The position numbers and the translations under genes were made by a program. The notes under the pieces are model-generated. The model had not been told where the DNA came from, ran no database searches, and saw nothing but the letters and a program-made list of their open reading frames with translations. 9,877 nucleotides of DNA from a virus. Its lineage: Duplodnaviria; Heunggongvirae; Uroviricota; Caudoviricetes. Of the stretch, positions 1 through 6,082 are shown piece after piece (positions within the stretch are counted from its first letter, which is position 1; every line of letters starts with the position of its first letter). Location of the stretch: IMG/VR virus record IMGVR_UViG_2531839661_000013, positions 1 to 9,877 of that record; one strand, given 5' to 3'.

Positions 1-1242
1 ATGGCGAGAAAAACACCCCCATTAACCACAGTACAGATCAAAGCAGCCAGACCAGCAGAAAAGGAATACACCCTACAGGACGGCGGAGGGCTTTTTCTCC
101 TGATCAAACCGTCCGGATCAAAACTCTGGAGATTTTCCTACTACCGACCATCGGACAAAAAAAGAATATTGCTGAGTTTTGGATCGCTTGATGATGTTTC
201 CCTGGCTGATGCCAGAAAACGCCGTAGCGAGTACAGGGCGTTAATTCGTGCCGGAACTGACCCGCAGGACCACGAGAGGCAAAAAAGAGAGACAGAGGCC
301 CGAAGACAAGGGAACACGTTCGAAAATGTGGCAACAGCATGGTACCAGGTGAAAATCAGCCAGAATCTGGCCCCCAATACGATTAAAGACATCTGGCGAT
401 CGCTGGAAAAATATGTATTCCCGTTCATCGGCAACACGCCAATAGACACCCTGACCGCTCGCAGGTTCGTTGAGGTGCTTACCCCCATCAAGGAACGTGG
501 CAACCTGGAAACGCTCAAGCGAGTTTTACAGCGTATAAATGAGGTAATGGATTACGCCGCCAATAGTGGGATGATTGATGCCAATCCGGCTATGAATGTG
601 CGTAAGGCGTTCCCCTCCCCTGTAAAAAAACATATGCCAACAATCCGCCCCGAACAGCTGCCGGAGCTTATGCAGGCTTTATCAGTATCGGCAACAGAAC
701 GGCAGACCAGATTACTGATTGAATGGCAGTTACTGACCGTAACCCGTCCCGTTGAAGCATCGTCGGCACGCTGGGAAGAAATCGACATGGAAGCGCAACG
801 CTGGACCATACCCGCCGGACGCATGAAGATGCGCCGCGACCACGTTATCCCGCTTTGTGACCAGGCTATGGCAGTGCTGGAGGCTATGAAACCAATCAGC
901 CACCACCGCGATTATGTTTTCCCGAGTCTGAAAGACCCACAGCAGCCGATGAACAGCCAGACCGCTAACGCAGCATTACGACGCATGGGATTCGCTGGCG
1001 TGCTGGTGTCTCATGGATTACGCGCCATATTCAGCACAGCAGCGAACGAAGAAGGCTTTGAGCCGGACGTAATAGAGGCCGCACTTGCCCACGTCGACAC
1101 CAACGAAGTCAGACGGGCATACAACCGGAGCAACTACATAGAAAAACGCATCGTGCTTATGCGCTGGTGGGGCGAATTTGTCGAGGCTGCGGCGACGGGC
1201 GTAACCCTCGCCAGTGGTAAAAGGGGTATCCGAGCCGTTTAG
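1..1242 (+). CDS. int: P4-type tyrosine integrase (IntA-like site-specific recombinase)
   Basis: 413-aa ORF starting MARKTPPLT...IKAA...DGGGLFLLIKPSGSKLWRFSYYRP, the N-terminal signature of P4/CP4-57 IntA-type integrases. C-terminal catalytic region has HxxR (AHVDTNEVRRAYNRSNY) and HGLRAIFST motifs. Window begins at its start codon, so the att site and target gene lie upstream, outside the window. Confidence 0.92.
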   Translation: MARKTPPLTTVQIKAARPAEKEYTLQDGGGLFLLIKPSGSKLWRFSYYRPSDKKRILLSFGSLDDVSLADARKRRSEYRALIRAGTDPQDHERQKRETEARRQGNTFENVATAWYQVKISQNLAPNTIKDIWRSLEKYVFPFIGNTPIDTLTARRFVEVLTPIKERGNLETLKRVLQRINEVMDYAANSGMIDANPAMNVRKAFPSPVKKHMPTIRPEQLPELMQALSVSATERQTRLLIEWQLLTVTRPVEASSARWEEIDMEAQRWTIPAGRMKMRRDHVIPLCDQAMAVLEAMKPISHHRDYVFPSLKDPQQPMNSQTANAALRRMGFAGVLVSHGLRAIFSTAANEEGFEPDVIEAALAHVDTNEVRRAYNRSNYIEKRIVLMRWWGEFVEAAATGVTLASGKRGIRAV

Positions 1243-1340
1243 CTGTACAGAAAACCAGTAAAAACTACGAAAACCATTTAAAACCGTCGTATAATTGCAT
1301 CACATTTAACGACGAGGCCTTGAAAAATGAAACTGTTAAG

Positions 1341-1571
1341 ATGCAAACAAATTTCAGATGCAATTGCGACGGGCTGCAACTGGCCCTGATGGTTCAGCAT
1401 GAATTTTGGTCAACCTACGATCCGGAGGACAGAACGACGGCCCCATCAAAAAAACAGGTAGTAGATTTCCTGGTATCCCGTGGGGCTTCCAGAAATCTGG
1501 CTGTAAGTATTGATAAGGTTGTACGTCCGGCATCCATGAAGACCGGAGGCAGGCCAAAAAAATGGCGGTAA
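1341..1571 (+). CDS. hypothetical small protein (76 aa from ATG 1341; the track ORF uses a TTG at 1320)
   Basis: ORF co-oriented with int and alpA. A perfect TATAAT lies at 1290-1295 and a strong intrinsic terminator directly follows the stop. No convincing Shine-Dalgarno before the ATG, so the transcript could instead be non-coding. Confidence 0.3.
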   Translation: MQTNFRCNCDGLQLALMVQHEFWSTYDPEDRTTAPSKKQVVDFLVSRGASRNLAVSIDKVVRPASMKTGGRPKKWR

Positions 1572-1581
1572 CAATCCTGAA

Positions 1582-1605
1582 AGCGGCAGAAATGCCGCTT
1601 TTTTT
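1582..1605 (+). terminator. Rho-independent terminator
   Basis: Stem AGCGGCA (1582-1588), loop GAAA, stem TGCCGCT (1593-1599), then a T7 run. Confidence 0.6.
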
Positions 1606-1630
1606 ATAAATCCCTTTCAAATCATCAATA

Positions 1631-1723
1631 TAAAAAACGGTGTATACCGTTTAAAAACGGTGAGTACTGTTTTTCCCTGCATCCGATGATTTACCGTATT
1701 TCTCACCGGAATACACCGGATTA
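1631..1723 (+). promoter_or_regulatory. repeat-rich putative control region upstream of alpA
   Basis: Direct repeats AAAAACGGTGTATAC (1633-1647) and AAAAACGGTGAGTAC (1653-1667), the first embedded in the dyad AAACGG-TGTATA-CCGTTT. Tandem CACCGGAATA / CACCGGATTA at 1704-1723, just 5' of the alpA RBS (GAGG 1726-1729). Confidence 0.35.
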
Positions 1724-1738
1724 ATGAGGTAAATCACG

Positions 1739-1945
1739 ATGGAAGCAATCAAAAAAGTCATCTTTCGCCAGGAAGTAAAAAAACTTATCCACATTAAGGC
1801 AGACAGCACGCTGCAAAGCATGATCAACGCCGGAGAATTCCCGCAGGGTTTTCGTGTCGGTTTGCGCCGTCGCGGATGGTATGAGGAAGACGTAATCGCA
1901 TGGATGAAAGAACGCGAACAAGAAGCGCGCGGAACGACCGCTTAA
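1739..1945 (+). CDS. alpA: AlpA-family phage/satellite transcriptional regulator (MerR-like HTH)
   Basis: 68-aa protein with the AlpA pattern: hydrophobic segment plus HTH (VIFRQEVKKLIHIKADSTLQSMINAGEFPQ), then GxRxxGWxEEDVxAWM. RBS GAGG sits 9 nt upstream. Confidence 0.85.
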   Translation: MEAIKKVIFRQEVKKLIHIKADSTLQSMINAGEFPQGFRVGLRRRGWYEEDVIAWMKEREQEARGTTA

Positions 1946-1970
1946 CATATATAGGGCAAATGATGAACAT

Positions 1971-1998
1971 AAAAAAAGCGGCCCCGAAATGGAGCCAC
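1971..1998 (-). terminator. putative intrinsic terminator for the leftward small-gene cluster (weakly bidirectional)
   Basis: On the minus strand: GGCUCC-AUUUC-GGGGCC (6-bp stem with one G-U pair), then GC and a U7 run. Lies between the convergent alpA and the 2067-2270 gene. Confidence 0.4.
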
Positions 1999-2066
1999 CT
2001 TTCTGAACAATTAACCCGCTGCGCCGTATGTGTCAACAATCATAAGCCCGGGCATGATAACCGCGA

Positions 2067-2270
2067 TCAGGCTGGTGGGCAATTATCTTGCTTGTTGGGG
2101 CCGTATTGTGCTGCCATTTTCATCCGTTCAGAACGTGAATATTTTTTTAGAAACTCATCAAGGACAAAAGCGCATGGTGCGAATCTTTCTGATTCATGCT
2201 CGAACGCCATATTTTCGTGCTCTCTGTTCGTTTTTTGCGATGGTGTATTGGTTGATTCTTTGTTGGTCAT
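2067..2270 (-). CDS. hypothetical small protein (67 aa), module-2 partner, paralog of the 2616-2843 product
   Basis: Begins ATGACCAACAA (MTNK...), identical at nucleotide level to the start of ORF 2616-2843. N-terminal pattern P-x-Q-x-T-x-x-E-x-E is shared between the two. Preceded by the conserved leader. Confidence 0.5.
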   Translation of the reverse strand: MTNKESTNTPSQKTNREHENMAFEHESERFAPCAFVLDEFLKKYSRSERMKMAAQYGPNKQDNCPPA

Positions 2271-2323
2271 TGTGTGTACCTGTAAAGCAATGCGCCGGAG
2301 TTCCTCACGCCACGGCGCTGATG
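2260..2323 (-). promoter_or_regulatory. conserved leader / translation-initiation element, copy 2
   Basis: 45-bp core (2279-2323) matches 2852-2896 at 42 of 45 positions. Contains the dyad GCGCCG-N15-CGGCGC. The 11-mer TTGTTGGTCAT (reverse complement ATGACCAACAA) at 2260-2270 is identical in both copies. Confidence 0.55.
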
Positions 2324-2327
2324 TTTT

Positions 2328-2501
2328 TTATCCTTTGGGTTCAATACCGCGTTGCTGTAATTCTTTTCGGAGTACTCGCTTGATCCAGGTGGCTAAAGAA
2401 GTGTCACCGTCTGCTTTCGCTGCCTCTTCAAGTTGTGCTCTGAATTCTTCTGGTAGCCGCATTTGGTATGGAGGCGATCGCTTTTCCAATGGTGTTGACA
2501 T
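2328..2501 (-). CDS. Arc/MetJ-type ribbon-helix-helix DNA-binding protein (57 aa)
   Basis: Hand translation of the minus strand gives MSTPLEKRSPPYQMRLPEEFRAQLEEAAKADGDTSLATWIKRVLRKELQQRGIEPKG. The segment RLPEEFRAQLEEAAKADGDTSLATWIKRVL is a classic RHH beta-strand, helix, turn, helix pattern. AAGGG lies 8 nt before the ATG. Not in the supplied ORF track because it is under the length cutoff. Confidence 0.7.
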   Translation of the reverse strand: MSTPLEKRSPPYQMRLPEEFRAQLEEAAKADGDTSLATWIKRVLRKELQQRGIEPKG

Positions 2502-2541
2502 GGTAATTACCCTTAATTACTATAGTTACATGGTAATTACC
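2502..2541. promoter_or_regulatory. putative operator: two perfect 10-bp palindromes GGTAATTACC
   Basis: GGTAATTACC at 2502-2511 and 2532-2541, 30 bp centre to centre, with a third TAATTAC half-site at 2514-2520. Immediately upstream of the Arc-like gene, overlapping its RBS and a candidate -10 (TATAGT on the minus strand). Confidence 0.5.
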
Positions 2542-2560
2542 ATTGTACTTACCGTTATAC

Positions 2561-2596
2561 AAAAAACAACGCCCCGGAAACGGAATAATCCGTTTC
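2561..2596 (-). terminator. possible terminator/insulator between module 1 and module 2
   Basis: Perfect 8-bp hairpin GAAACGGA-N4-TCCGTTTC (2577-2596), followed on the minus strand by CGGGGCGTTGTTTTTT. The U-run starts about 10 nt after the stem, so this is not a canonical terminator. Confidence 0.3.
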
Positions 2597-2615
2597 ATAG
2601 TTCCGTTTTGTGTAC

Positions 2616-2843
2616 TCATCCTGGCGGGCGATTCTTACGGGACTTTAGCCGCCGTGGGCAGCTTGCTAAAAATGCCTCCAACGCGAATAGTCCTGGTTTC
2701 ATTTCTATCGGTATTAGTTGGATATTCAGAGGATTAGCCAGTTCGGCTTCAAGGCGAGCACAGGTTTCTAACTGCCTTTGCCGAATGATTTCATCTTCTT
2801 GCGTCTGCGTGTCTTGTATTGGTAATAGTGTGTTGTTGGTCAT
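2616..2843 (-). CDS. hypothetical small protein (75 aa), module-1 partner, paralog of the 2067-2270 product
   Basis: Begins ATGACCAACAA (MTNN...). Weak RBS (CAGGG) lies inside the conserved leader. C-terminus is basic (RRLKSRKNRPPG). Confidence 0.5.
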   Translation of the reverse strand: MTNNTLLPIQDTQTQEDEIIRQRQLETCARLEAELANPLNIQLIPIEMKPGLFALEAFLASCPRRLKSRKNRPPG

Positions 2844-2896
2844 GGTACTGCCCTGTAAAGCAATGCGCCGTAGTACCTCACGCCACGGCGCTGATA
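2833..2896 (-). promoter_or_regulatory. conserved leader / translation-initiation element, copy 1
   Basis: Paralogous to 2260-2323 with the same GCGCCG-N15-CGGCGC dyad. Sits between the stop of the RHH gene (2901) and the start of ORF 2616-2843. Confidence 0.55.
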
Positions 2897-2900
2897 GTGA

Positions 2901-3080
2901 TTATTCTGATTCTTTGGCCTTGCGACGCTGGCGGCGTTTGATTTCGCCGCGCATGGCAGTAACGATAAATTGTGCGTCTGTTTCGTTTTCTTCTTTTACC
3001 AAATTCATTTCGCTTAAAACGTCTAGAGGTACTCTAGCAGTTTTTTGTTGTGACTTGTTGTTGGTTGTACCTGTTGGCAT
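2901..3080 (-). CDS. putative ribbon-helix-helix-like DNA-binding protein (59 aa)
   Basis: Internal ATG of the 107-aa track ORF, preceded by a perfect AAGGAG with 7-nt spacer. Product MPTGTTNNKSQQKTARVPLDVLSEMNLVKEENETDAQFIVTAMRGEIKRRQRRKAKESE has an RHH-like strand-helix-helix pattern and a basic tail. The N-terminal extension in the track would run across the operator dyads. Confidence 0.5.
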   Translation of the reverse strand: MPTGTTNNKSQQKTARVPLDVLSEMNLVKEENETDAQFIVTAMRGEIKRRQRRKAKESE

Positions 3081-3103
3081 CTCTGTTCTCCTTACTGTTA
3101 GGT

Positions 3104-3207
3104 GGTGTTCAGTATACGGAGAAAAAAAAATAAAAAAAGACTTGAAGTGCAAGTCACCTAAAAGTAACCTAGATTTCAAGGTGACTTGCACCAAAAAACA
3201 ACGCCCC
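3104..3207. promoter_or_regulatory. divergent control region with 13-bp inverted repeats and an A-tract
   Basis: Inverted repeat GTGCAAGTCACCT (3147-3159) / AGGTGACTTGCAC (3179-3191). Nested hairpin GACTTG-AAGTG-CAAGTC (3139-3155). A9-T-A7 tract at 3122-3138. Candidate leftward -10 TATACT (minus strand, 3111-3116). Shared 15-mer AAAAAACAACGCCCC at 3193-3207. Confidence 0.45.
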
Positions 3208-3264
3208 ACAGTGCTGGAACACATGCAGGGCGTCTAACCACAAACACTATAGAGAGGTAAATTT

Positions 3265-3459
3265 ATGGTTGCCGTAAATCATACCCCACGACTAGCACAC
3301 ACACAAACGGCCTTTGTGTGGCGTTTTCTGGCACTGAGTGCCGGAGAATCTCAAATCATCCACGTAACCGCCTGGACGGAACGCGAAGCGCGTAGCCGTT
3401 GCCCGTCCGGTTGTGTCGCTGTATTTGCCGCCCGTATTCGCCAGGGGGTAGGCTTATGA
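3265..3459 (+). CDS. small protein, possibly Icd-like host cell-division inhibitor family
   Basis: 64 aa, RBS GAGAGG 7 nt upstream. Motif AFVWRFLALSAG...VTAWTEREARSR...VAVFAARIR resembles the short Icd-like proteins found upstream of primases in P4-like elements. Family assignment is from memory of the pattern and is not verified. Confidence 0.5.
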   Translation: MVAVNHTPRLAHTQTAFVWRFLALSAGESQIIHVTAWTEREARSRCPSGCVAVFAARIRQGVGL

Positions 3460-3689
3460 GCCAGGAAATCACACTACAACAGGCAGCAGAACGCGCCCAC
3501 CAAATCGAAGTTATTTGCGCACTGGCAGAGGATTACCCTGGCATGATGACCGACAGCGAATCAGGGGCAATCATCGGCTTACTTAAACGCCTTAGCGGTG
3601 AGGTCTGCGTATTCCTGAGCGATGAACAGGAAAGAAGAACGCTTATTTCTAACGAAAAAAAATGCGGAGGGGTACACCATGTGCAATAA
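3456..3689 (+). CDS. hypothetical protein (77 aa)
   Basis: ATG at 3456 overlaps the upstream stop (ATGA). RBS AGGGGG 7 nt upstream. First of a run of translationally coupled genes. Confidence 0.55.
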   Translation: MSQEITLQQAAERAHQIEVICALAEDYPGMMTDSESGAIIGLLKRLSGEVCVFLSDEQERRTLISNEKKCGGVHHVQ

Positions 3690-3939
3690 AACCACACCGG
3701 ACGCAGCCGCCGAAGCCATCAAAACGCTGATGCACGCGCTGATTGATATTTCTGTTATCGCGGACAGGGCACATAAGCACGCCACCAGCGAAACAGAATA
3801 TGCCGGGGCTTTCGTTCCTCACTCACTGGCTGTTATGCAATTTAGTGCTGATATGGCACTGAATGAGGCTAAAACCATCCTGATTACTGATTGTGAAAAT
3901 GGGGGGGGGTTATGCGTGATGATCGTTTTAATTCCCTGA
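3679..3939 (+). CDS. hypothetical protein (86 aa); reading frame crosses a G9 homopolymer
   Basis: ATG 3679 with RBS GGAGGGG. The C-terminus (ENGGGLCVMIVLIP) is translated through the G9 run at 3901-3909, so its 3' end and length depend on the tract length. Confidence 0.45.
   Translation: MCNKTTPDAAAEAIKTLMHALIDISVIADRAHKHATSETEYAGAFVPHSLAVMQFSADMALNEAKTILITDCENGGGLCVMIVLIP
3901..3909. repeat. G9 homopolymeric tract at a gene junction
   Basis: Nine consecutive G directly seen at 3901-3909. The run serves as the Shine-Dalgarno for the ATG at 3912 and lies inside the 3' end of the preceding ORF. Confidence 0.9.
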
Positions 3940-4145
3940 AACAAGAATTTTCCGGCGTTCCTGATGATGCGGCTGATGCGCTTTCGTCAATGCCAGAACT
4001 TATTAGAGCGGCTTTTTTCTTACTTTCCACGAAAGAATATAAATCAACGGGACTTGATGTACTGAATATCGCCGCCGATTATGCGGAATATGTGGCAGAG
4101 GCGCGTTACAGAAGAAAATTTCCTGAGGATGTAAGCCATGCGTGA
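3912..4145 (+). CDS. hypothetical protein (77 aa)
   Basis: ATG 3912 is two nt downstream of the G-run. Acidic, helical-looking sequence with no recognisable motif. Confidence 0.5.
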   Translation: MRDDRFNSLKQEFSGVPDDAADALSSMPELIRAAFFLLSTKEYKSTGLDVLNIAADYAEYVAEARYRRKFPEDVSHA

Positions 4146-4371
4146 TATTTACATTGAAACAATAGACCGCGCATTTAGTGCCCTTGCTTACGCTGAAGGT
4201 ATGTACGAAATATTGCAAATGTGGCTGGAAACATTTGACGATAATGAGCGTGATGTAAAGAAGGCGCGGATTATTAAATCACTGATAACTCTCCTTGAAC
4301 CTGTAATAACAGAGTTGCAGGAAATAGACTTATTGCACGACAGATATAACGAACAGCACACCGGAGAATAA
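4138..4371 (+). CDS. hypothetical protein (77 aa)
   Basis: Start overlaps the upstream stop by 8 nt. Acidic helical protein. Confidence 0.55.
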   Translation: MRDIYIETIDRAFSALAYAEGMYEILQMWLETFDDNERDVKKARIIKSLITLLEPVITELQEIDLLHDRYNEQHTGE

Positions 4372-4376
4372 AAATA

Positions 4377-4676
4377 ATGAAACTTAAATATTCTGGCTTA
4401 ACTGCCAGTGGCAACACTCACCCTAAATTTACGCGCGGTGATATTTACCGCGACCAGTACGGCGGCACGGTAATGATTAAGGGCGTGGCGGGACGGTGCG
4501 TAACTTACCGCCGTGAAGGTTACGAATATGATTGCGTGATGCCTGTTTATCAGTTCCGGCGTGATTTTTCTCTGGTACAGACCGCGCCGCATAACGTGCC
4601 CACCAGCAACGCCAGGGCACGGGCAAACATCCAGAAGCTGAAAACCATGATTAACGGATTCAGGAGTAAAAAATGA
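4377..4676 (+). CDS. hypothetical protein (99 aa)
   Basis: RBS GGAG upstream. Its stop overlaps the primase ATG (ATGA at 4673-4676). Confidence 0.55.
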   Translation: MKLKYSGLTASGNTHPKFTRGDIYRDQYGGTVMIKGVAGRCVTYRREGYEYDCVMPVYQFRRDFSLVQTAPHNVPTSNARARANIQKLKTMINGFRSKK

Positions 4677-6082
4677 AACTGGCACCGAACGTAAAACTAT
4701 TACCGAAAGATAAATACACCGATGCGATTATTTTTGCGGGTATTGATGCTCACTCATTCGCAGAGCATTACATCATTGCACAGGCCAAAAAAGCAGGCGA
4801 TCCAGTCCCTCCCGTTTATCTGGGGCGTTATCAGTTAAGCGAACTGGATAACCTCCAGATTGTTGATGATGGGCGATACAGGGCGACGGTGATACGCGCC
4901 GGAAATATTGAAGAGCCGCAGCTGTTAACCATCGCCACGAAACTGGCGATCGCCGGAGTCCAGGAGGCGCGGCTACTTTCTGAAAATTTCGAATTGCTGG
5001 AGGAATGGAGCGACCAGCTTCCACGGCTTAGGGAGGCATGGGAACGCGGGGAAAGCCTGGTCATGAAAAAAATCCCCCAGCGAAAAACCACGCTACCGAT
5101 GAGCGTTGGATCTACCGGATACGACACACAGCTTGATTACGTGGTAAAGGGGATTATTCCGGCATCGTCGCTTTGCAGCATATACGGGGCGAGCGGTTCC
5201 TATAAATCATTCCTTGCCGGATCGTGGGCGTGTCACGTTTCCACGGGCCGCCAGTGGGGAGGCCGCAGGGTGGCGCATGGCGCTGTTCTCTATGTGGTTG
5301 GTGAAGGCGGTATCGGCGTTCCGCGTCGTGTAAAAGCCTGGGAGGTTGTGCACGATGAGCAGGTGAAAAATCTGTATCTGGTAAACCGTCCCATCTTTCC
5401 GGCGGTCCCGCTTGATGTTGATGAAATGGTTATCGCTGCCCGTCAGGTGGAGCGGGAAACGGGTAAACCTGTACGCATGATTATTCTGGATACGCTGGCG
5501 CGTTGCTTTGGTGGCAATGATGAAAATGATTCCCGTGATATGGGGGCATTTATCCGTGGTTGTGACGAACTGAAACGACGCACAGGGGCTACGGTGCTGG
5601 TGGTTCACCATTCCGGCAAGGATGAGACGAAAGGCGCGCGTGGTTCCAGTGCATTTCGTGCATCACTGGACGCTGAATACCGGATACGCAGGGAGGACGC
5701 AGGAAGCGAAGCGCTGGTTATCTCATGCACCAAAATGAAGGACGCGGAGGAACTCAAAGAAGCCGCATATGACTTACGCGTGGTGGAGCTGTTTACCGAC
5801 GCTGACGGGGAGTTAATCACGTCGCTGGTGGTGGTGGATAAGCCGCGTCCTCCCGTTGAACTGGAGCGCATCGAAGAGGCTGGCAACAAGACGGAGAATC
5901 ATGCTGCGCTATGGGGATGTATCCGGTCACGCACACAGCACGGCGACAAGTGCACGATCCCGCTGTTACGTGACGATATGAAAAAGCTGGGGTACGAAAT
6001 GAAAAACTTCAGCCGCTGGCTACGCAAGCTGGAAAAAGACGCCGTTATTTATATCGACGGTGATGATGTAGGCCCTCTGTAA
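4673..6082 (+). CDS. satellite replication protein: RecA-fold ATPase (RepA/DnaB-like), primase/helicase-like
   Basis: 469 aa. P-loop YGASGSYKSF at 5183-5212 (variant Walker A, GxxGxYKS). Walker B-like hhhhD (MIILDTLA) and downstream VLVVHHSGKDE...GSSAF, typical of RepA-like replicative ATPases. RBS AGGAG 6 nt upstream. An iteron array follows immediately. Confidence 0.8.
   Translation: MKLAPNVKLLPKDKYTDAIIFAGIDAHSFAEHYIIAQAKKAGDPVPPVYLGRYQLSELDNLQIVDDGRYRATVIRAGNIEEPQLLTIATKLAIAGVQEARLLSENFELLEEWSDQLPRLREAWERGESLVMKKIPQRKTTLPMSVGSTGYDTQLDYVVKGIIPASSLCSIYGASGSYKSFLAGSWACHVSTGRQWGGRRVAHGAVLYVVGEGGIGVPRRVKAWEVVHDEQVKNLYLVNRPIFPAVPLDVDEMVIAARQVERETGKPVRMIILDTLARCFGGNDENDSRDMGAFIRGCDELKRRTGATVLVVHHSGKDETKGARGSSAFRASLDAEYRIRREDAGSEALVISCTKMKDAEELKEAAYDLRVVELFTDADGELITSLVVVDKPRPPVELERIEEAGNKTENHAALWGCIRSRTQHGDKCTIPLLRDDMKKLGYEMKNFSRWLRKLEKDAVIYIDGDDVGPL

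Follow-up and report, generated by a model that had tools for sequence, protein, structure and literature searches.

A predicted antisense RNA and a probable repressor-operator module in front of the replication genes of a satellite-like island in Escherichia coli

How might the replication operon of a phage satellite be governed from the 184 bp that separate it from a small leftward gene? The question is raised by IMG/VR record IMGVR_UViG_2531839661_000013, a Caudoviricetes virus record whose positions 1 to 9,877 are the window analysed here (coordinates count from its first letter; plus and minus denote rightward and leftward strands). The window is an approximately 10-kb Escherichia coli island beside tRNA-Pro, flanked by yejM and yejO, and is 99.4% identical to a locus of E. 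coli strain 10 in NZ_CP146507.1, where adding 1414926 to a window position gives the record position. The gap lies between a gene for a 59-aa protein of the YlcI/YnfO family, a predicted ribbon-helix-helix (RHH) repressor (2901-3080, minus), and a gene for a 64-aa Icd-like protein (3265-3459, plus; NCBIfam phage_ICD_like, 64.8 bits against a cut-off of 25, with RefSeq in agreement), the first of a rightward operon that continues with DUF4222, a RepA-type helicase, PerC and a ClpP-protease/capsid fusion. A preliminary description took 3104-3260 for a dyad-rich control region and probably the main switch of the element. Both the open reading frame (ORF) list and the RefSeq annotation of NZ_CP146507.1 place the divergent starts that bound this region at 3080 (minus) and 3265 (plus), and a switch region between repressor gene and replication operon is supported by the evidence below. 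We consider it reasonably probable that the interval is a compact two-layer switch heading the replication operon of an island resembling P4 or the phage-inducible chromosomal islands (PICIs). One layer would be a pair of operators; the other, a predicted cis-antisense RNA, is conserved, apparently undescribed and the most interesting component of the region. The preliminary description missed this minus-strand RNA: 3192-3264 is not operator DNA, and the RNA extends past 3260, where that description stopped.

The predicted RNA, about 78 nt long, runs leftward from 3270 to about 3193 (feature 3192-3270, minus) over the 5′ untranslated region (UTR), the Shine-Dalgarno (SD) sequence (GAGAGG, 3252-3257, plus) and the AUG of the Icd-like gene. 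On the minus strand it folds into two hairpins followed by UGUUUUUUGG. Hairpin 1 (3236-3270, minus) pairs its 5′ segment AACCAUAAAU with GUUUGUGGUU, exposing the anti-SD CCUCUC in its loop and holding the anti-AUG in its stem. Hairpin 2 (3200-3234, minus), which was flagged as terminator-like by our scan, consists in the window of an 8-bp inner stem inside a 14-bp hairpin; with the U-rich tail GUUUUUUG (3192-3199, minus), which ends just before the operator O2 described below, it has the form of an intrinsic terminator. On the other side, a putative antisense -10, TATGAT (3283-3278, minus), lies within codons 5-7 of the Icd-like gene, and a weak -35-like TTGTGT (3301-3306, minus), located 17 bp upstream of it, is not conserved outside the enterobacterial families. 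The same part of the Icd-like ORF, 35 nt after the ATG, contains a separate terminator-like hairpin, CACACAAACGGCCTTTGTGTG then GCGTTTTCTG (3300-3329, plus). This hairpin, which recurs in several icd families and shares bases with the antisense -35, could be a premature terminator of transcripts from the putative rightward promoter P_R, as in P4/IsrK leaders.

Related loci were gathered from E. coli genomes and viral contigs, yielding about a dozen versions of the control-region architecture described below. Hairpin 1 is always closed in the same way: A[G/A]CCAU at the very 5′ terminus, complementary to the start codon and the second codon, pairs with an invariant UGGUU. Its inner stem, wholly different between families, always pairs. 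Among 37 distinct sequences, the loop of hairpin 1 measures 7 nt in 24 and contains an anti-SD-like tetramer in 25 (median z-score -2.9). In 12/12 true families a TAnnnT hexamer precedes the predicted 5′ A by 7 nt (by 6 nt in one of them), although the amino acids encoded there differ. The hexamer is rare at other offsets: 22 of 30 had it in no family, five in a single family and offset 28 in three. Because the offset is fixed in all 12 families despite the differing amino acids, we take TAnnnT to be a -10 signature; the RNA thus appears to have its own promoter at a fixed distance from its 5′ end, by virtue of the -10, the -35 not being conserved. At the other end, the 12 nt that follow the GGGG of the second stem hold a mean of 6.9 U, compared with 32% U overall.

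A covariance model of the RNA, R1, was built from 39 sequences. It matches the window at 3273-3182 (minus) with 73.3 bits (E about 1e-12), and gave 80 matches in 100 sources, with further matches in Shigella, Kluyvera, an enterobacterium, Pseudomonas capeferrum, a Burkholderiales metagenome-assembled genome and Aquabacterium. In the resulting alignment 95.6% of the cells assigned to pairs do pair; for hairpin 2 the figure is 97.5%, with compensatory changes in 10 of its 13 pairs. None of 500 shuffles reached the observed pairing and covariation values, and no slid structure came near them. A conserved, covarying secondary structure is present on the antisense strand, and the choice of strand rests on three comparisons. 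The minus strand has 129 G·U cells and 0 A·C cells, which on the plus strand become 129 A·C mismatches and leave only 81.8% of the same pairs intact. In an alignment-free comparison of folding energies, the minus strand was favoured in 52 of 52 distinct sequences, with a mean advantage of 8.2 kcal/mol. Lastly, R1 matches on the minus strand are full-length and score 40-86 bits, whereas those on the plus strand are partial and score 13-19 bits.

The RNA, rather than the operators, is the most widely shared part of the region: in a BLAST search with 3081-3290, the stretch 3192-3289 was the part found most widely, in 976 of 5426 E. coli genomes. The pattern used to scan the genome collection was too loose (about 7 real loci among 120, most being chance matches), and the taxonomic spread reported here is consequently a lower bound. 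An Rfam scan of the window returned only sub-threshold matches, and no description of the RNA was found in the literature, whether by exact sequence or by topic (Icd-like, antisense, PICI); Pichon et al. (2012) was set aside as not relevant.

Beyond the enterobacterial islands, the RNA module is found in front of unrelated ORFs (GIY-YIG-like, ArdC-like and Cys-rich among them). These loci, designated L133 (7357-7448, Pseudomonas capeferrum), L019, L023, L060/L141 and L203, score 40-64 bits, and the ORF after the module starts with ATGGCT in each. In the Pseudomonas prophage, the module is located between terS and a 242-aa ORF, followed by terL, portal, ClpP and capsid genes.

The operator layer centres on a 13-bp perfect inverted repeat, GTGCAAGTCACCT at 3147-3159 and AGGTGACTTGCAC at 3179-3191 with 19 nt between the arms, exactly as the preliminary description placed it. 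When the 184-bp intergenic region was shuffled 5000 times with its dinucleotides preserved, 13 bp was reached only once (mean longest repeat 6.5), and the whole window has only three perfect inverted repeats of at least 10 bp, the only comparable one elsewhere being ATGGTAATTACC (2500-2511/2532-2543) in module 2, a second, truncated copy of the switch. The description had also reported a nested hairpin, an ambiguous term; two more dyads exist. One is the strong stem-loop at 3200-3234, hairpin 2 of the RNA. The other, GACTTG/CAAGTC (3139-3144/3150-3155), overlaps the left arm of the repeat and is not conserved in relatives; as a terminator, together with its T-run, it was rejected on this ground.

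Each arm of the repeat is an 11-mer of the form GTG-N5-CAC. The left arm, O1, has the core GTG-CAAGT-CAC and lies in the spacer of the putative P_R, and the right arm, O2, covers approximately +1 to +13 of that promoter. The dozen or so versions share a layout of leftward small gene, A-rich tract, TTGnnn, site, TAnnnT and second site, in which the core of the site differs from version to version: CAAGT in the window, TATTT in L002a, CGATT in L003, GTGTAAGAC in L016, TGTGATTCA in L013 and GGTAATTACC in the version with an Arc-like gene. Across 12 modules, each core is present 2-6 times in its own module at constant positions, and the 10-mer directly after the -35 occurs a mean of 3.9 times in its own control region, compared with 0.69 times in those of other modules. 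In L003, L017 and L025, O2 repeats O1 in the same orientation instead of inverted. Because O2 is sometimes a direct repeat and the positions are constant, we regard the sites as DNA operators and not as an RNA hairpin.

A third, O3-like site, GGTGGTGTTCAG (3101-3112), lies over the leftward -10 and start region. The copy at this position equals O1 in L002a (GGTGTATTTCAG and GGTGTATTTCAC) and in L003 (GGTGCGATTCAG and GTGCGATTCAC), overlapping the leftward -10 in both; the window's 11-mer GTGGTGTTCAG (3102-3112) agrees with that of O1 at only 7 of 11 bases. The core GTGACTTG (on the other strand CAAGTCAC) also occurs a third time in the window at 3050-3057, within the repressor gene, where it is part of the codons of an invariant K-S-Q motif and may be coincidence or an extra binding site.

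From the repetition of short sites over the promoter they would regulate, next to a predicted RHH gene, the arms are best read as the O1 and O2 operators of the adjacent 59-aa protein. This protein, WP_001142000.1, belongs to the YlcI/YnfO family NF041551 (NCBIfam, 61.7 bits against a cut-off of 30), of which we found 119 homologues across Enterobacterales; a PDB sequence search with the YlcI alignment gave no match, and no description of a repressor function for YlcI/YnfO was found in the literature. Repressor type tracks site type, the Arc-like 57-aa protein always being found with GGTAATTACC and YlcI-type proteins with GTG-N5-CAC sites. Together with the repetition of each core in its own module, this bears out the earlier suggestion that the 13-bp dyad acts like an operator pair whose specificity is unlike that of the GGTAATTACC sites of module 2. 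In MAFFT alignments, the operator region is not homologous between YlcI-type and Arc-type modules, and promoters were accordingly re-derived for each type.

The preliminary description listed a candidate -10, and two such hexamers are present: TAACCT (3165-3170, plus) and TATACT (3116-3111, minus). With TTGAAG (3142-3147, plus) 17 bp away as its -35, the first would form P_R, with a predicted start at about 3177-3179. The TTG is invariant in alignments A1 and A4, and TTGnnn-16/18-TAnnnT is found in all 12 modules, with O1 directly after the -35 and a spacing of 17 bp in most. We infer that TTGAAG-17-TAACCT is a positionally conserved, sigma-70-like rightward promoter bracketed by O1 and O2. 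The earlier failure to find a convincing sigma-70 promoter agrees with a strict scan of 2800-3600, which also found none; the accompanying suggestion of an activator-dependent promoter is unsupported and not needed, because the sigma-70-like P_R is conserved at the matching place in all 12 modules. AlpA might nevertheless act at P_R.

The A9-T-A7 tract that the description also listed is at 3122-3138, between the two predicted back-to-back promoters and at approximately -55 to -39 of P_R. UP elements are A/T-rich sequences at -38 to -59 of sigma-70 promoters, and the tract resembles one: 3131-3139 matches the proximal subsite consensus, AAAAAARNR, at 8 of 9 positions, a placement that depends on the predicted start of P_R. 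YlcI-type modules keep an A-rich tract here, which ends in AAAAAG immediately in front of the -35. The leftward hexamer TATACT, from which transcription would start at about 3103-3106 (promoter P_L), is plausible as the -10 of the repressor gene: CAGTATAC is conserved in all YlcI-type modules. From the letters alone, an SD sequence of this gene can be read as AAGGAG (3088-3093, minus), 7 nt before the ATG at 3080.

Several observations weigh against a two-layer switch. The -10 of P_R in the window matches the consensus at 3 of 6 positions and the promoter falls below the threshold of the strict scan; P_L has no recognisable -35, and the antisense promoter has no convincing one. In many relatives, the tails of the terminator are only moderately U-rich and are interrupted. 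The degeneracy of O3 makes autoregulation doubtful in the window, and the predicted fold of the 59-aa protein resembles RHH proteins with low fold-search scores. A Mantel test relating the N-terminal sequence of the protein to the operator gave r = 0.5-0.7, a correlation that can come from linkage alone and that we do not use as main evidence, the repetition of cores within each locus being the stronger argument. Finally, the significance of the shuffles is inflated, both by the fitting of alignment A5 to the modelled structure and by the relatedness of its sequences; the strand-energy comparison escapes the alignment bias but not the relatedness. The weak -10 and the empty strict scan would also suit control purely at the level of DNA. 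In that case the repeat would be an operator, the remaining hairpins would be additional sites for proteins, and transcription of the rightward operon, in the absence of its own sigma-70 promoter, would need an activator such as AlpA, for which the island has an AlpA-like gene (1739-1945, plus; weak Pfam support, E = 0.003). We consider this unlikely given the position of TTGnnn-16/18-TAnnnT in every module, the lack of any known or detectable AlpA site in the interval, and the maintenance of the 3200-3234 pairs through G·U changes that suit only a minus-strand RNA, which would not be expected of a protein-binding palindrome.

Other readings keep an RNA or a folded strand and differ in what it does. 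The 13-bp repeat could be a minus-strand terminator or attenuator before the repressor gene, with its large hairpin (3191-3147) competing with a GACUUG/CAAGUC hairpin and U7AU9; a minus-strand scan flags 3155-3139 plus TTTTTTTATT as terminator-like, and the 13-bp stem dominates the minus-strand fold. We find this very unlikely, as L002a and L003 lack the small hairpin, the direct repeats of L003, L017 and L025 cannot pair, the region contains third or fourth copies of the cores at other places, and the conserved TATACT downstream of the U-run gives the repressor gene a candidate promoter of its own. Alternatively, the conserved hairpin with the invariant UCUAACCA might act in the sense strand, either as an element of the icd mRNA 5′ UTR (stabilising, processing or self-sequestering translation operator) or as a divergent C4/CI-type RNA. 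The mirror-image hairpin can form in the mRNA too, the invariant ACCA end and the GC-rich stem of 7 bp bear a loose resemblance to C4 and other RNase P substrates, and in P4 a C4-type RNA lies directly before the Icd-like ORF. The evidence on strand makes such a role quite unlikely, the plus strand carrying the A·C mismatches, the lower stability and the weaker R1 matches; moreover, the TAnnnT box fits only a leftward transcript, and the Rfam models C4, isrK and c4-a1b1, strong in P4, L002 and L005, find nothing in the window. The minus-strand structure could instead function as single-stranded DNA, where G·T pairs are also tolerated, for example as a signal for priming or packaging; among the island's genes is one for a RepA-type helicase, and the Pseudomonas prophage has the element between terS and the terL-side genes. 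Such a function is hardly credible beside the -10 at a fixed distance, the anti-SD loop, the exact placement on a translation start and the U-rich tail, all of them features of a transcript.

If its three promoters are active and the repressor binds as predicted, the favoured two-layer switch would work as follows. P_L and P_R stand back-to-back and would share the A-tract, P_L (-10 TATACT) driving the 59-aa YlcI/YnfO RHH protein and P_R, starting at about 3178, driving the Icd-like gene and the replication genes behind it. Repressor bound to O1, in the P_R spacer, and to O2, at +1 to +13, would exclude RNA polymerase from P_R, and the degenerate third site over P_L may provide autoregulation. 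The antisense promoter in the first Icd-like codons would fire leftward constitutively, producing an RNA of about 78 nt that hairpin 2 and the U-run would end just short of O2. With full complementarity to bases +15 to +93 of transcripts from P_R, this RNA would block Icd translation or trigger cleavage of the duplex, and polarity from the blocked Icd cistron would then silence leaky operon expression and keep the replication genes off. Once P_R is derepressed, convergent transcription over about 90 bp would suppress the antisense promoter.

The overall design most resembles the immI region of phage P22. The order of immI is mnt - Pmnt/Pant - arc - sar RNA - ant. Shared with it would be small RHH repressors acting on operators that overlap divergent promoters and a short cis-antisense RNA made from a promoter inside the rightward unit, over the ribosome-binding site of a gene kept off in the lysogen. 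The two are not related by sequence or in Rfam terms (sar gave no match at E up to 1). They also differ in that the target here is the Icd-like gene of a satellite replication operon, the repressor is a YlcI/YnfO protein, and the predicted 5′ end of the RNA lies within its target ORF. A comparable convergence, which here would span about 90 bp, occurs at the face-to-face promoters of coliphage 186/P2, where a lytic-type promoter meets an opposing one and the firing of one can suppress the other; unlike there, the opposing transcript here would be a short terminated RNA rather than repressor mRNA, and interference is likewise a prediction.

The position of the RNA, directly before an Icd or Icd-like ORF that heads an operon deciding between lysogeny and replication, is shared with c4-icd-ant of P1/P7 and with IsrK (seqA) and CI of P4. 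In P4, IsrK-like and C4-type (CI) RNAs lie directly before the element's own Icd-like ORF, and C4/CI, unlike the RNA of the window, belongs to the sense strand, is processed and has its pairing sites within its own leader (PMC3632133). The models RF01695 (C4), RF01394 (isrK) and RF03163 (c4-a1b1) had no match in the window at E up to 1. As positive controls, these models scored 74.9 and 60.8 bits in P4, and 75-78 and 62-66 bits in L002 and L005, and R1 found nothing in P4. Since R1 is silent on P4 and the window has neither C4 nor IsrK, the two appear to be different RNA solutions at the same regulatory position. Both are stacked at L002:2558-2743 and L005:1702-1887, where the antisense module and a truncated icd start are followed, about 130 nt on, by isrK, C4 and a second icd.

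SymR, which opposes SymE in E. coli, offers a likeness in form, being a cis-antisense RNA of about 77 nt with a 5′ hairpin and a terminator hairpin that covers the SD and AUG of a harmful gene. The SymR model (RF01809) is the only Rfam model that aligns to the RNA end to end, with 25.9 bits (E = 0.18). Against a gathering score of 61 bits, this rules out membership in that family; the genetic context and the target are different as well. The island as a whole resembles the AlpA-regulated Gram-negative PICIs EcCICFT073 and EcCIMP1 in its integrase, AlpA-like protein, PerC, replication module, tRNA-gene site and Icd/Ash-like genes (PMC11773190). In that work, AlpA is the master activator and PICI control is described mainly as activation by AlpA, and a term search of its text found no mention of antisense RNA. 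Unlike those PICIs, the island analysed here has repressor modules between alpA and the replication operon.

Judged from its sequence relatives, the RNA module is portable. We see an evenly balanced case for a broader proposal, that 3192-3270 founds an undescribed, widespread family of cis-antisense 'immunity' RNAs of about 80 nt. The family would be a portable cassette of antisense promoter, anti-translation-start hairpin, invariant UGGUUAGA and terminator that, together with hypervariable RHH repressors, establishes the off state of PICI/P4-like satellites and possibly also their immunity specificity. It would be reused before unrelated genes in prophages of Gammaproteobacteria and Betaproteobacteria, as an alternative to C4/IsrK that is sometimes stacked with it. 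A repressor-operator module combined with an antisense RNA on the first gene of the replication operon would add a P22/P4-style immunity layer to PICIs, and could explain how islands stay silent and how cross-talk between co-resident islands is avoided. About a fifth of complete E. coli genomes, O157:H7 included, carry the predicted RNA. It matches no Rfam family and is a candidate for a new one. The evidence from covariation and strand is unusually clean, and the predictions are precise: the 5′ end should lie at 3270, the length should be about 78 nt, and the target is defined.

The gene content of the island is that of a PICI/P4-like satellite, with an integrase (1-1242, plus), the AlpA-like helix-turn-helix gene, the RepA helicase, PerC, the protease/capsid fusion and the adjoining tRNA-Pro. 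No portal or terminase genes were found in the island, and the full gene set of capsid-forming PICIs is not matched; a BLAST search with 3100-3470 against 50,697 phage records gave no match. The fusion of a ClpP-like protease with a major capsid protein is located at 7453-9342, and the island ends about 400 bp past the window, before yejO.

Between alpA and the switch are a small leftward gene (2067-2270, minus) and the Arc-like 57-aa gene (2328-2501, minus), the latter to the left of module 2 (2495-2575, plus). Module 2 is a paralogous, truncated copy of the switch, with the promoter TTGACA-17-TACTAT, the best sigma-70 match in the window (10/12), two GGTAATTACC operators and only the left arm of hairpin 2. 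Over 2495-2620, this arm, CAAAAAACAACGCCCC, is fused to an internal piece of another icd allele. Module 2 looks like a dead paralogue, possibly a recombination scar from the stacking of immunity modules.

The four leftward small genes share one phase, with spacers of 57, 114 and 57 nt, and antisense to all of them runs a 445-codon stop-free frame (1900-3237, plus) that stops at a TAA within the invariant TCTAACCA. PGAP labels the counterparts of this frame in relatives as incomplete Icd-like pseudogenes; its translation does not look protein-like, yet such a length is unexpected. Directly 3′ of both predicted RHH genes is a direct repeat of about 43 nt, CTGTAAAGCAATGCGCCGnAGTnCCTCACGCCACGGCGCTGAT (2280-2322 and 2854-2896), which contains the minus-strand stem GCGCCGT...ACGGCGC and might serve the repressor modules as a common 3′ end or terminator. 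Two strong hairpins on the minus strand also resemble intrinsic terminators and surfaced through weak partial matches to the Rfam models ctRNA and Atu_C8. One is at 7025-7070 (GGGCGC...GCGCCT then GTTTTTTTGT); the other, at 1963-2000 (GGCUCC...GGGGCC then a U-run), would end the block of leftward small genes.

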